Virus record (IMG/VR): IMGVR_UViG_3300031890_000005
Coordinates: 603-64,602 of that record
Length of the DNA: 64,000 nt
Direction: 5' to 3' (one strand)
Source: a virus
Taxonomy: Duplodnaviria; Caudoviricetes
This document shows positions 2,966-29,781 of this stretch, piece after piece. Numbering within the stretch: position 1 is the stretch's first letter; each line of letters begins with the position of its first letter. The translations under genes were made by a program, and so were the position numbers. Under the pieces are notes generated by a model. It was not told where the DNA came from, searched no databases, and saw only the letters and a program-made list of their open reading frames with translations.

Positions 2966-3030
2966 TCACCTCAGTTGAGCGCCGGTCCCGAAGGCTAACG
3001 TCGGGACCGGTACTGAAAGGAGGTGAGCAA

Positions 3031-12366: not shown

Positions 12367-12472
12367 CCGTAGCGGGCCGACCGAGTCCGCGATGACGCGA
12401 ACCTAGTTCGCTCCGGTCAGGTTGGCCCTCAACTACGGGGCGAGTTGAGGGCCTCCCTGAAAGGAGGTGAGC

Positions 12473-14536: not shown

Positions 14537-14611
14537 CCTTGAGCCCCGGGCTCGGATGTCAACGTCCGACAAACGCGCCGTCCGAGCCCGGTACTGAAAG
14601 GAGGTGACACA

Positions 14612-15274: not shown

Positions 15275-15628
15275 ATGAAGCTGCGTACAGCAGCCGTAAG
15301 CGGAGCGATAGCGCTCGCTGCTGCAGGGATACCGCTCGCGACGCCATCAGGCGTAGCAGCACGTACCTGCGGCAAGCCGGGCGTCACTGTATCGCATAAC
15401 CAGACATCCACGACCGCTCACATCAATTCCAATCCCTGCAGCAAGTGGTGGATCTGGCCATGGGGATCGTTCATCGACCAGGACGGCAATCCCGACCGCG
15501 ACAGTGTGAGGGGCGTCAAGTCAGGCAACCCCGTTGTGCAGGAATCGGGCGCGCGTAAGAACGTGCTCGGCGGCTACGGCTACTCGGACTCGTCAGGCGT
15601 TATTACCAACGTACAGACGTACGGGTAA
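15275..15628 (+). CDS. Putative secreted protein
   Basis: Sec-type signal MKLRTAAVSGAIALAAAGIPLATPSGVAA; paired Cys. Confidence 0.7.
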   Translation: MKLRTAAVSGAIALAAAGIPLATPSGVAARTCGKPGVTVSHNQTSTTAHINSNPCSKWWIWPWGSFIDQDGNPDRDSVRGVKSGNPVVQESGARKNVLGGYGYSDSSGVITNVQTYG

Positions 15629-15716
15629 CCTCCGTTGAACGTCCGGCTCGAACCTTTGCCCTACAGGTCAGGGCGACATGATGGTAGGTTCGAGCCGGAC
15701 CTTGAAAGGAGGTAAC

Positions 15717-15959
15717 ATGTCGGCCTGGAAAGAGATACTGCACGATGAGCTCGGAGGGCTCACTCGCACAGAGCAGGCCAGGATCCTTGTCGCTCATGGC
15801 TGGACAGAGCAAGATGCCTACGACATGCTAGAGCGACAGCACGTCTTCGCAAGGGAGGAGGTGACAAGTGAGGACAATACTGATATCGATCAGGGACAAC
15901 GACTGGGCAGACAGAATCGTTCGCGAGCTCGCAGAGCGACAGAACCTCCTAGGCGATGA
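15717..15959 (+). CDS. Hypothetical protein
   Basis: Hairpin plus GAAAGGAGGT SD. Confidence 0.65.
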   Translation: MSAWKEILHDELGGLTRTEQARILVAHGWTEQDAYDMLERQHVFAREEVTSEDNTDIDQGQRLGRQNRSRARRATEPPRR

Positions 15960-27062: not shown

Positions 27063-27288
27063 GTACCGCGGTCCTGACCTGCGGGAGTTCGAGGTCTTGG
27101 CTGAGCATGTCGCTCTCGACGTGTCCTACGGGCCGGCAGTGCTAGTCATGGTGACAGGCATTGTGCGGCAGCTCCTTGATGGGCAACCGGGCGAGGTAGA
27201 CATAACCGTCGACGATCAACGATTCAAACTACCGGAGGTATGGAGTGCCCCTAAGGCTCCTCGAACATTATCCGAGCATACAAGGTGA
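27046..27288 (+). CDS. Hypothetical protein
   Basis: SD GAGGAG. Confidence 0.6.
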   Translation: MLISIKYRGPDLREFEVLAEHVALDVSYGPAVLVMVTGIVRQLLDGQPGEVDITVDDQRFKLPEVWSAPKAPRTLSEHTR

Positions 27289-27949
27289 GGGTCCGCGCAC
27301 CGGCGTCCCTACTCAGTTCGTGAGGTTTGCTGGATGCAACCTCCGTTGTGCCGAGTGGCCCTGCGACACGCAGTTCGCGATCCAGCCGAAGCTGTACCGC
27401 AAGGAACAGAAGTTCGTGAGCGTGGCTAGCCTCTATGCCGACATCGCAAAGATGTCAGGTGAGACTGGAGCTGAAAACGTTTGTCTTACAGGCGGCGAAC
27501 CGATGATCCAACGTGCCGACGATATCACTGAGCTGATCGAGACCCTTACGTTCTATCACACGCCGGTCGAGATGTTCAGCAACGGAACGCTACCATACCC
27601 GGACGCTATCATAGAGCTCTGTCAGGTCGTCATGGACTGGAAGCTACCGGGCTCAGGCGAAGACGCCACCGATCCGACTCGAATCGCGAACTACCACGCG
27701 ATGAGGGAGGCAGGCGGGCACACCATTAAGTTTACCTGTGTCAACCGGGCCGATCTAGAACACGCGCTTCATCTGTATGAGTTCTATGACATGAAGGACT
27801 TCCCAGGCCAAGTCTACGTCGGCCCAGTCTGGGACGCTCAACTGCCGCCGAGACAGATCGTCAAGTTCATACTCGAGCATCACCTCGCCTGGAACCTCAA
27901 CGTACAGCTACACAAGTTCATCTGGGAACCCGACGCGAGGCGCACTTGA
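27245..27949 (+). CDS. queE: 7-carboxy-7-deazaguanine synthase (radical SAM)
   Basis: SIQGEG..TG.PT.FVRFAGCNLRC....CDT, LTGGEP, DWKLPGSGE, NVQLHK. Confidence 0.92.
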   Translation: MPLRLLEHYPSIQGEGPRTGVPTQFVRFAGCNLRCAEWPCDTQFAIQPKLYRKEQKFVSVASLYADIAKMSGETGAENVCLTGGEPMIQRADDITELIETLTFYHTPVEMFSNGTLPYPDAIIELCQVVMDWKLPGSGEDATDPTRIANYHAMREAGGHTIKFTCVNRADLEHALHLYEFYDMKDFPGQVYVGPVWDAQLPPRQIVKFILEHHLAWNLNVQLHKFIWEPDARRT

Positions 27950-28034: not shown

Positions 28035-28080
28035 CCTGGCCCGGCTGTCCAGACTCCCCCCCTCTGGCGGCCGGGCCAGG
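28035..28080 (+). terminator. GC-rich hairpin (terminator or processing signal) just upstream of the tRNA-like RNA
   Basis: CCTGGCCCGGC ... GCCGGGCCAGG, 11-bp perfect stem. Confidence 0.6.
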
Positions 28081-28084
28081 TCGA

Positions 28085-28153
28085 GGGCCGGAGCAAGAGG
28101 AGCGGAACTGATCAGCCGCCATGGTATCGCGGGTTCGAATCCCGTCCGGTCCA
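28085..28153 (+). ncRNA. tRNA-like RNA without a D stem, with an Ala-type acceptor stem (G3:U70, A73)
   Basis: Acceptor GGGCCGG/CCGGTCC-A; T arm GCGGG-TTCGAAT-CCCGT; no D stem; non-canonical anticodon arm; CCA not encoded. Confidence 0.65.
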
Positions 28154-28154
28154 C

Positions 28155-28574
28155 GTGAGCAAGCATAGGCAACAGAGGAAGAAACCGCCGACCTGGATTC
28201 TGATCACAGGATCCGTTGCTGCCATTATCATAACGCCGGTCGCGTCGTTCACTATCACGCTGAGCGTCATCAGGCAGCTGTTCCCTCACCAGCCACCGCT
28301 GGGGCCATACATTTACATTCCGGGACCAAGCCCTTCACCTACGCCCGTCCGGCAGAGTGGCTATTACCAGCCTCAGTACTATCCGAATCCTGTCATTCCA
28401 GGCATCCCGTCACCGATAGTAGTCGGTCCCTCAGAGCCGGTCATCCCTGGCGTGGCTACGACGCCTGCTCCGACTCCGACCACACCGGTGCCGACTACAC
28501 CAGTACCGACTACTCCAGTGCCAACAACGCCTGTGCCGACAACTTCCCCGCCGGTTACACCAACAAATTCCTAA
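28155..28574 (+). CDS. Single-pass membrane protein with Pro/Thr-rich PTTPV repeats
   Basis: Basic N-terminus, one TM segment, (PTTPV)n tail. Confidence 0.7.
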   Translation: MSKHRQQRKKPPTWILITGSVAAIIITPVASFTITLSVIRQLFPHQPPLGPYIYIPGPSPSPTPVRQSGYYQPQYYPNPVIPGIPSPIVVGPSEPVIPGVATTPAPTPTTPVPTTPVPTTPVPTTPVPTTSPPVTPTNS

Positions 28575-28595: not shown

Positions 28596-28626
28596 CTTGA
28601 TTAGGCCCACTCTCTCGCGATATAAT
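28596..28626 (+). promoter_or_regulatory. Conserved phage promoter
   Basis: TTGATT-18 bp-TATAAT; GGCCT/AGGCC inverted repeat flanks the -35. Confidence 0.8.
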
Positions 28627-28659: not shown

Positions 28660-29781
28660 ATGGACTTGAGTGCGATCCATGAGGTGCACGGATCTCAACT
28701 CAAGTCCTTTCGAGGCTGTCGTCTTCAGTATCAGTGGCAGTATGTCGACGGCTACTCGCCGCTCATTCGTCCCGCTCCTCTTGAGTTCGGGACTGCCTTC
28801 CACGTCGGGATGGAGACTCTGTACTCTCCCGCCACGTGGGACTGGCCGCTCCTCGAGTTGTACCGCCGTGCTAAGCAGGCGTTCATCGATACGTGTGAGC
28901 TTCAGCAGCGCGAGTACCTAGATCGCAAGGAGCACTATCGGCTCGACCCTGAAGAGGAAGTCGACTATCAGGAGCGCATCGAGCTCGGTACTGGTATGCT
29001 GCGCCTAGTAGCTCGCACTATGGATCGGAAGAACTTCACGCCGATTGCTGTTGAGCGTGAAGCCTTTGCGCCGATCCTCGACCCCCTTTCAAGGACGCCT
29101 CTCGTCTGCCCTCATTGCGGAAAGCCGTTCTACTACGGCGTTCGTCCGGATGCAGTGCTAGTTGATCACAATGGCCTCTACTGGCTTGTTGACTGGAAGA
29201 CTACTGCCATGCTCTTGAAGGACCAGATCGTCCTCGAGCTGGATGGTCAGATCGCAACCTACCTGTGGGCCCTCGTTCATGCTCTCGGCCTCAACTTTGC
29301 AGGGTTTAAGTACGTCCAGGTCTACAAGGGATTCCCCAAGAGGCCTAGACTGCTAATGCAACCGCGCTTCGGCCGCAAGTTCTCGGTCGCTCATAACCAG
29401 CGAACTGATCCGGTCATCTTCAAGCAAGTGGTACGCAAGAGGGACCCGGCTGCTTTCCAACTTGGACTTTATGACGAGTACCTTGAGTGGCTAGCTGAAT
29501 TCGGTCCTAAGTTCTTCAGGTGGTTTACCGTCTACAAGAGTACTGCCCAGTTGGCAACAATAGGTGCAGATCTCGCTACGCAGGTTATCGAGCAGTACAT
29601 TGGCAACCCTCCGATCTACCCTAACTCCGGCCGCATGCAATGCGAACGTTGTCCCTTCCAGGAGCCTTGTCTTGAACGCCAAAGTGGCGGACACTATCAA
29701 GACGTCCTAGACTCCAGTTATGAGCAACTGGAGCCCTACTTCGTTAGGGCACGTATTCTGAGAGAGGAACGTATCGCATGA
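28660..29781 (+). CDS. Cas4-like / PD-(D/E)xK exonuclease
   Basis: N-terminal Cys, FGTAFH, RPDAVL..LVDWKT, C-terminal CERCPFQEPC. Confidence 0.85.
   Translation: MDLSAIHEVHGSQLKSFRGCRLQYQWQYVDGYSPLIRPAPLEFGTAFHVGMETLYSPATWDWPLLELYRRAKQAFIDTCELQQREYLDRKEHYRLDPEEEVDYQERIELGTGMLRLVARTMDRKNFTPIAVEREAFAPILDPLSRTPLVCPHCGKPFYYGVRPDAVLVDHNGLYWLVDWKTTAMLLKDQIVLELDGQIATYLWALVHALGLNFAGFKYVQVYKGFPKRPRLLMQPRFGRKFSVAHNQRTDPVIFKQVVRKRDPAAFQLGLYDEYLEWLAEFGPKFFRWFTVYKSTAQLATIGADLATQVIEQYIGNPPIYPNSGRMQCERCPFQEPCLERQSGGHYQDVLDSSYEQLEPYFVRARILREERIA

Follow-up and report, generated by a model that had tools for sequence, protein, structure and literature searches.

This analysis points, with moderate confidence, to a functional, non-decoding tRNA mimic that would be excised from a phage operon transcript by RNase P and RNase Z. 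The element, 69 nt in length, lies in the window, i.e. the whole 64,000-nt stretch of DNA that was analysed, which derives from an IMG/VR virus record of 64.6 kb (~82% complete, 57% G+C). What it retains of a tRNA (acceptor stem, T arm and a single strand with GG) is the portion recognised by RNase P, RNase Z, the CCA-adding enzyme, AlaRS and EF-Tu, while the decoding part has been lost, and it constitutes a new variant among the little-known phage-encoded, message-less, alanine-type tRNA mimics.

Anatomy and operon setting of the element

The anatomy that had been described in a first, sequence-only reading of this locus (69 nt, G3:U70, A73, a T arm, a 4-bp central stem, a preceding hairpin and a following GTG) was confirmed in every respect by sequence reading, and comprises the following parts.

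28035..28081, + strand: GC-rich hairpin with 11-bp outer arms and an inner CCAGA/TCTGG stem (inverted repeat and fold)
28085..28153, + strand: tRNA-like RNA of 69 nt, with a 7-bp acceptor, a T arm and a 4-bp central stem with a 10-nt loop
28085..28091, + strand: acceptor 5' strand, GGGCCGG (sequence reading, cmscan alignment)
28092..28101, + strand: single-stranded substitute for the D region, AGCAAGAGGA, 10 nt, containing GG
28102..28119, + strand: central arm, GCGG / AACTGATCAG / CCGC (constrained fold)
28102-28105 / 28116-28119, + strand: the two central-stem strands, GCGG / CCGC, with the loop AACTGATCAG between them
28129..28145, + strand: T arm, GCGGG-TTCGAAT-CCCGT (sequence reading, cmscan alignment)
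28146..28153, + strand: acceptor 3' strand CCGGTCC (28146-28152) and discriminator A73 (28153)

The acceptor is an accessible 7-bp helix that contains G3:U70, the universal alanine identity mark, and is followed by A73 as discriminator, a combination that by sequence is that of an alanine acceptor, and the 5-bp T stem with its T-loop consensus completes the acceptor and T-arm half typical of RF00005. The remainder departs from a canonical tRNA in that there is no D stem (the D region being 10 unpaired nt), a 4-bp arm with a 10-nt loop occupies the place of the canonical 5-bp/7-nt anticodon arm, a 9-nt linker, CATGGTATC, joins the central arm to the T arm, and no CCA is encoded at the 3' end. 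When folded on its own, the 69-mer is no more stable than shuffled sequences (z -0.85). The motif AGGAG occupies RNA positions 14-18, made up of the last 4 nt of AGCAAGAGGA and the first base of the stem. A 15-codon ORF (ATG 28121) lying behind this AGGAG, with the hairpin as spacer, was considered and rejected, being missing in the related phage contig G001 and ending at another stop in the close relative L063.

The element has no usable anticodon arm and is unable to decode. It is extremely unlikely to be an odd tRNA in which a GAU in the central loop reads Ile codons while alanine is carried: the sequence CUGAUCA does put a U ahead of GAU, and two full-length metagenome tRNAs that share the top half (L109 and L097) have GAU or UAU anticodons, but this reading must accommodate a 4-bp stem, a 10-nt loop, a C at position 37 and the lack of a D arm, as well as the absence of a comparable loop in G001 and a UGAU whose position in the loop varies between lineages, a 4-mer common to two 10-nt loops not being significant. 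The UGAU/GAU common to the loops of the window, L078 and L081 was rejected as an anticodon on these same grounds of inconsistent position and lack of significance.

Standard tools pass over the element. ARAGORN called 0 tRNA or tmRNA genes in the window, and Rfam at gathering thresholds yielded no match there; at relaxed thresholds RF00005 reached 22.3 bits against a gathering cut-off of 29 (E-value 0.026 locally and 9.9e-4 genome-wide), with a cmscan alignment that covers the acceptor and T arm only and skips the other two arms. RF00023 had no match anywhere in the genome at E<=10, and the mascRNA model likewise left the window element unmatched at E<=10. The mRNA-like domain of tmRNA (resume codon, tag ORF, pseudoknots) is absent from the element, which is only 69 nt long, and a permuted or two-piece tmRNA was rejected, ARAGORN and Rfam both being negative. 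The element thus lies outside the tRNA and tmRNA families as defined by Rfam, in agreement with the earlier suggestion that it is not an ordinary tRNA. Megablast and blastn comparison of the region with 50,697 phage records returned no match, and similarity to cultured phages is below 30% at the protein level. A loose acceptor-plus-T-arm motif occurred in 22 of 200 random 64-kb sequences, so that the motif alone is weak evidence; the element is judged to be real because of its conservation and its recurrence in relatives, as described below.

The gene order around the element, all on the + strand, is SNF2 helicase, small ORFs, QueE-like gene, hairpin, element and ORF139, and the neighbouring features are these.

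27245..27949, + strand: radical-SAM QueE-like gene (Pfam PF04055 / PF13353), upstream of the element
28155..28574, + strand: ORF139, 139 aa, GTG start, with a basic N-terminus, one TM helix and a Pro/Thr-rich tail
28597..28626, + strand: promoter-like site that starts the next unit and sets the 3' limit of the element's unit
28660-29781: PD-(D/E)XK nuclease of the next unit, followed by an AAA_24/Sak4-like ATPase

No promoter-like or terminator-like sites are present between queE and ORF139, and the element must consequently be co-transcribed with both. It is, in other words, a non-canonical tRNA-like fold within a longer transcript, on the strand of its flanking genes and lacking a promoter or terminator of its own, as are the t-elements of plant mitochondria. 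The GTG of ORF139 begins 1 nt after A73. Its basic N-terminus, its TM helix and its in-frame indels relative to L063 indicate that ORF139 is a real gene starting at GTG 28155, and yet no Shine-Dalgarno was found within 20 nt upstream of that codon, whereas 21 of the 28 predicted genes between 20 and 36 kb of the window have one at their first start. The near-leaderless downstream mRNA envisaged in the sequence-only reading fits this exception among neighbours that mostly carry a Shine-Dalgarno.

The hairpin, whose outer arms (28035-28045 / 28070-28080) correspond to inverted repeat I1/I17, stops short of the tRNA-like element, leaving 3 nt between its 3' end and G1. It was rejected as an intrinsic terminator, since in the window neither strand shows a U tract there. 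Hairpin positions 28042-28052 and central-loop positions 28108-28118 are complementary at 9 of 11 positions, a stretch that shows no variation. Long intergenic hairpins are also found at window positions 2966-3026, 12411-12466, 14539-14598 and 15614-15727; in these four the 3' arm runs into GAAAGGAGGT, so that an upstream TCACCTC-like strand pairs with the Shine-Dalgarno and sequesters it.

Conservation in close and distant phage relatives

While three loci (L002, L101 and L103) are near-identical copies of the window locus, L063, whose AAA_24 protein is 95% identical to that of the window, provides an informative comparison. The hairpin is identical at 52 of 53 positions in L063 (98%), the single change converting a G:C into a G:U pair, and the element at 67 of 69 (97%), with all 37 interior bases unchanged. 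The two differences within the element fall on both sides of one acceptor pair, G6:C67 in the window having become A6:U67 in L063, which is a compensatory change, and all three substitutions across hairpin and element therefore preserve pairing. In the flanks, ORF139 shows 67% identity with 30 gap columns, its indels remaining in frame as in coding sequence, and the upstream side is unalignable as far as the hairpin base. On this comparison hairpin and element form one conserved island or module, which, together with the pairing-preserving substitutions, argues strongly against a decaying pseudogene. The data show a structured RNA under purifying selection, and the element is regarded as functional.

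That the locus is a functionless remnant of a phage tRNA gene is accordingly held to be very unlikely. Several observations would suit such a remnant, namely the sub-threshold RF00005 score without an ARAGORN call, the collapsed D and anticodon arms, a stand-alone fold that does not exceed shuffles, and a patchy distribution in relatives that includes absence from one clade (below). Decay would nevertheless have to explain 97-98% identity amid flanks that are at 67% or unalignable, 0 pair-breaking substitutions together with one pair changed on both sides, and, at 27-64% protein identity, the retention in G001 of the 69-nt architecture with an identical top half. The earlier view that the element is not decaying is thus borne out.

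G001 (L072, IMGVR_UViG_3300044999_000022) is a phage contig of 86.8 kb (95% complete) with synteny to the window and 27-64% amino-acid identity. Its element is again 69 nt long and shares with the window all 32 bases of the acceptor and T arm (32/32), including G3:U70 and A73; its 37-nt interior is unrelated to that of the window save for AGGAG at positions 14-18. A similar GC-rich hairpin precedes it, and the module is located between homologs of window genes 22962 and 23631 and not after queE. The gene downstream of the G001 element has a strong Shine-Dalgarno. Some 340 nt upstream of the element, this contig has another odd tRNA-like gene (L072 1005-1085), an 81-nt sequence designated 'tRNA-Stop (tta)' by ARAGORN, with a normal-looking D arm, a 6-bp central stem and a 16-nt loop.

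In a more distant clade (L076, L078, L081 and L082), with AAA_24 proteins 37-41% identical to that of the window, a tRNA-like gene of 78-83 nt lies ~2.5-2.9 kb upstream of the ATPase gene, 7-10 nt past a stop codon and 14-22 nt ahead of the next ATG. A D-like hairpin of 6 bp, capped by a tetraloop, is present in this gene together with a 4-bp central stem and an oversized loop, and compensatory changes occur at 8 of its pairs. ARAGORN assigns these genes to Gly or Ile or makes no call, their best Rfam match is tRNA-Sec at a sub-threshold score, G3:U70 is absent from them, and the downstream gene possesses a Shine-Dalgarno here too. In the clade at 53-60% identity no such element was found within 10 kb.

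Across ten related elements, all 120 acceptor and T-stem cells (120/120) are paired and six pairs are altered on both sides. Two-sided changes of this kind, such as G6:C67 to A6:U67 in L063, are the covariation for which the sequence-only reading had proposed to search related phages. The further expectation that homologs conserve G3:U70 holds for those that share the same top half, most of which were found by searches that required this sequence, and it fails in the more distant phage relatives.

Related top halves in other genomes

Short forms (66-70 nt) turned up in exact-match scans with the top half: in the Micrococcales genera Demequina and Occultella, in one Pseudomonadales MAG and in metagenomes. 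Their interiors constitute several unrelated groups. Every short form retains G3:U70 and A73, as do the window, L063 and G001; among the short forms this invariance of the top half is partly built in, since the scans required that very sequence. The best Rfam match of the Micrococcales and metagenome short forms is mascRNA-menRNA, at sub-threshold scores of 24.3 and 19.2 bits. The Micrococcales copies look like stand-alone genes behind promoter-like -10 boxes, and cellular copies adjoin transposases, DUF4145 and DUF6414 genes. For Demequina and Occultella, copying of the top half of the host tmRNA or tRNA-Ala was rejected, because the sequences differ, and for the same reason, i.e. a top half unlike the tmRNA and tRNA-Ala of their own genomes, the cellular copies look foreign. 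The hairpin in Demequina and Occultella resembles a minus-strand terminator, so that one group's hairpin may not be the equivalent of another's.

These surroundings bear on a reading in which the module is a mobile or recombination cassette, either an integrase att site or a moving tRNA-derived element that has stayed identical through recent transfer. The cellular neighbours and the foreign top half just mentioned are in its favour, as are the different intergenic positions of the module in the window and G001 and the left flank that differs between the window and L063 up to the hairpin base. Such a cassette is nonetheless distinctly unlikely: no tyrosine integrase was found in the window genome, and PF00589 had no match in G000, G001 (95% complete) or G013 (100% complete); from copy to copy the interiors show no relation, an outcome that recent transfer would not yield; and neither terminal repeats nor target duplications were observed. 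The absence of a tyrosine integrase and the intact 5' acceptor strand, which att remnants do not have, also led to the rejection of an attP or integration remnant as such.

A search of 185,579 genomes for the exact 23-mer formed by the T arm and 3' acceptor strand gave 52 hits, most of them full-length tRNAs, whether ordinary or odd, from archaea, CPR bacteria and Acidobacteriota. As this 23-mer ends many ordinary tRNAs and also a jumbo-phage tmRNA, it defines no family by itself. The tmRNA in question, on a 239-kb viral contig (L005 5135-5517, minus strand; RF00023 88.5 bits; tag VETSTPLRMAA), has as its last 23 nt the 3' end of the window element. An interior-motif search for Micrococcales-type members matched at least 80 loci; among the 80 listed, all but two known members were chance matches (coding DNA), and its pattern is too weak to find such members. 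Tandem repeats of ~300 nt, with up to 6 copies per locus, in one Planctomycetaceae MAG (L161, L164, L171 and L179) were matched by chance with an unrelated pattern.

Several unusual tRNA genes were encountered in the course of these searches. In Acidobacteriota, 72-73-nt tRNA genes combine a GGGCCGG/CCGGTCC acceptor, G3:U70 and A73 with Asp- or Arg-type anticodon loops (a GCG-loop set, L009, L017, L029, L042 and L058, and a GUC-loop set, L025, L035, L049, L051 and L053); they have a bulged anticodon stem and each has its own promoter-like site, a canonical tRNA-Asp is also present in 4 of 5 Acidobacteriota genomes checked, and the Ala-type acceptor would entail mistranslation if these tRNAs were charged with alanine. 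An odd tRNA-Asp-like type from the same phylum (L086, L091 and L092) begins GGGCAGT TAGAGGAG and has a CTGTCAC loop, a TTCAAAT T-loop, G73, an encoded CCA and a 5-bp hairpin instead of a D arm, and three further loci (L084, L085 and L088) consist of tRNA-Asp 3' halves that run from the anticodon loop to CCA and have unrelated sequence in front of them; they look like classic att-site duplicates of integrated elements. On metagenome contigs and in Gammaproteobacteria MAGs, 71-nt tRNAs with an Ala-type top half and a CUC anticodon (L096, L102, L104, L106, L107, L010 and L059) have their own -35/-10 site, are enclosed by a leader/trailer pair CCTCCG...CGGAGG and are directly followed by a further promoter; they may form arrays. 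The metagenome tRNAs L097 and L109, likewise full-length at 71 nt with the G3:U70/A73 top half, have the Ile-type loops CUUAUAC and CUGAUAC. In Nitrosopumilaceae (L014 and L015), the central stem-loop of a tRNA-like gene, TCCGGTTTCTCACCCGA, is repeated ~50 nt upstream of the gene.

Proposed excision from the operon and possible roles in trans

For RNase P, RNase Z, the CCA-adding enzyme and AlaRS, the acceptor/T-arm half of a tRNA is sufficient as a substrate. From this, and from the anatomy of the locus, we infer the following course of events, which is the preferred reading. The element would be transcribed within the queE-ORF139 unit, and a cut by RNase P at G1 (28085) would leave a queE mRNA that ends in the conserved hairpin plus 3 nt and whose 3' end would be protected from exonucleases. 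With no encoded CCA, the RNase Z cut would fall behind A73, and the ORF139 mRNA would then start at C-GUG with a 1-nt leader; such a near-leaderless start is proposed as the reason why ORF139 lacks a Shine-Dalgarno. The released 69-mer would gain CCA, and G3:U70 with A73 would allow it to be charged with alanine, so that the RNA set free is probably CCA-tailed and alanine-chargeable. In this regard, Schimmel and colleagues reportedly found that minihelix-Ala, the acceptor/T-arm half with G3:U70 and A73, suffices for alanylation in vitro; those substrates are laboratory constructs, whereas the window RNA is a predicted alanine acceptor.

Excision is favoured by the distant clade L076/L078/L081/L082, in which a covarying tRNA-like gene sits between a stop codon and the next ATG. 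The formation of a leaderless mRNA, on the other hand, is not general, given the Shine-Dalgarno downstream of the element in G001 and in that clade. A pure processing signal is opposed by the 37-nt interior, fully conserved between the window and L063, and processing alone leaves the retention of G3:U70 and of the exact top half unexplained. The Micrococcales copies, which look like stand-alone genes, and the unremarkable fold of the isolated 69-mer also weigh against the preferred reading.

For the operon-embedded element, the closest functional analogues are the t-elements of plant mitochondria, non-canonical tRNA-like structures at which cuts by RNase P and RNase Z make mRNA ends (Forner et al. 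2007, PMC1920247). These t-elements and mascRNA/MALAT1 resemble the proposed arrangement in being tRNA-like structures inside longer transcripts from which they are excised by RNase P/RNase Z, and in MALAT1 a stabilising structure stands immediately upstream of the tRNA-like element; they differ in belonging to another domain of life and in being non-homologous, and processing of the window RNA is a deduction from its structure. With ordinary phage tRNAs and pseudo-tRNAs (RF00005) the element has in common an acceptor, a T arm and a position between phage ORFs, and it differs from them in the absence of a D arm and of a 5-bp/7-nt anticodon arm, in its length of 69 nt and in its sub-cut-off score.

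The main rival is a function in trans, regarded as a genuine but minor possibility, in which excision from the operon is merely how the RNA is made and the CCA-tailed, alanine-chargeable mini-tRNA serves as a message-less tmRNA tRNA-like domain (TLD) or as a toxin decoy; it might titrate SmpB, EF-Tu or AlaRS and in this manner inhibit trans-translation, or act as a decoy for defence toxins directed at the acceptor ends of tRNAs. Such a role would be consistent with the retention of G3:U70 and A73 throughout the short forms as well as in L063, G001 and the window, with the 37/37 conserved interior in L063 and with the stand-alone Micrococcales copies behind promoter-like -10 boxes, which hint at a role for the RNA itself. 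A precedent is available in mycobacteriophage DS6A, whose ssrA is listed as 'TLD only' (Hudson, Lau and Williams 2014, PMC4131195). According to a passage in that paper, a similar TLD-only molecule strongly inhibits tmRNA, perhaps via SmpB titration (PMC4131195, citing Mao et al. 2009). The DS6A element was located at JN698994 28478-28557 (L189), with G3:U70 and A73, 10 nt past the gp33 stop codon, with the DNA pol III gene gp34 on its other side. It is unannotated in the GenBank and RefSeq records, and DS6A also encodes an RtcB-like RNA ligase.

Both the DS6A and the window RNAs are phage RNAs of ~70-80 nt that have G3:U70, A73 and a T arm but neither a D stem nor a message; the DS6A RNA occupies an intergenic position within the replication region. 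However, DS6A scores 34.7 bits with RF00023, a score that it owes to its 5' D-loop motif, P2a helix and 3' end, while the window genome has no match at E<=10; the UGGUGGUCGAC D-loop motif, P2a helix and 3-nt linker that mark DS6A as tmRNA-derived are all wanting in the window element; and the acceptor and T-arm sequences of the two differ, with no blastn similarity between them. The window element resembles the TLD of tmRNA in general (RF00023) in its alanine pair, its T arm, a GG-containing D region that forms no stem, and a helix where the anticodon arm would be, but it has no mRNA-like domain, tag ORF or pseudoknots and is negative in ARAGORN and Rfam, the conserved tmRNA D-loop motif is absent and the T-arm linker measures 9 nt instead of about 3. 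The original idea of a message-less tmRNA head therefore survives in part: the DS6A 'TLD only' case (PMC4131195) gives it a precedent, while, with no RF00023 match and neither the tmRNA D-loop motif nor the short linker, the element is not detectable as a tmRNA relative. Further points against a role in trans are that the top-half invariance of the short forms is partly built into the exact-match searches, that the distant phage relatives lack G3:U70 and that the phage does not encode SmpB, no SmpB gene having been found in the window genome.

A broader version of the role in trans assumes a scattered family of 66-70-nt non-decoding mini-tRNAs with alanine identity and the top half GGGCCGG...GCGGGTTCGAATCCCGTCCGGTCCA, and is put forward only tentatively, as a rather unlikely proposition. 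Its extension, in which this family is carried by phages and mobile islands and acts in trans on the host's translation machinery, blocking trans-translation through capture of SmpB or absorbing defence toxins that modify or cleave the acceptor ends of tRNAs, is viewed with the same degree of doubt. If true, such a family would be a new type of RNA factor that serves counter-defence or host take-over and escapes tRNA and tmRNA finders. The preferred excision from the operon and a role in trans are not exclusive.

Phage genes for tRNA-like RNAs that are overlooked by standard finders are rarely examined, and the acceptor and T arm alone provide a concrete search model for further genes of this type. 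If the element is a processing module, the phage exploits the tRNA-maturation enzymes of its host for operon punctuation and for the production of a leaderless mRNA; operon punctuation by these enzymes is documented in organelles, and to our knowledge no case is known for phages. If, on the other hand, the RNA acts in trans, the barely described, single 'TLD-only' case of DS6A would widen to a class of RNAs directed against ribosome rescue or tRNA-directed defences.
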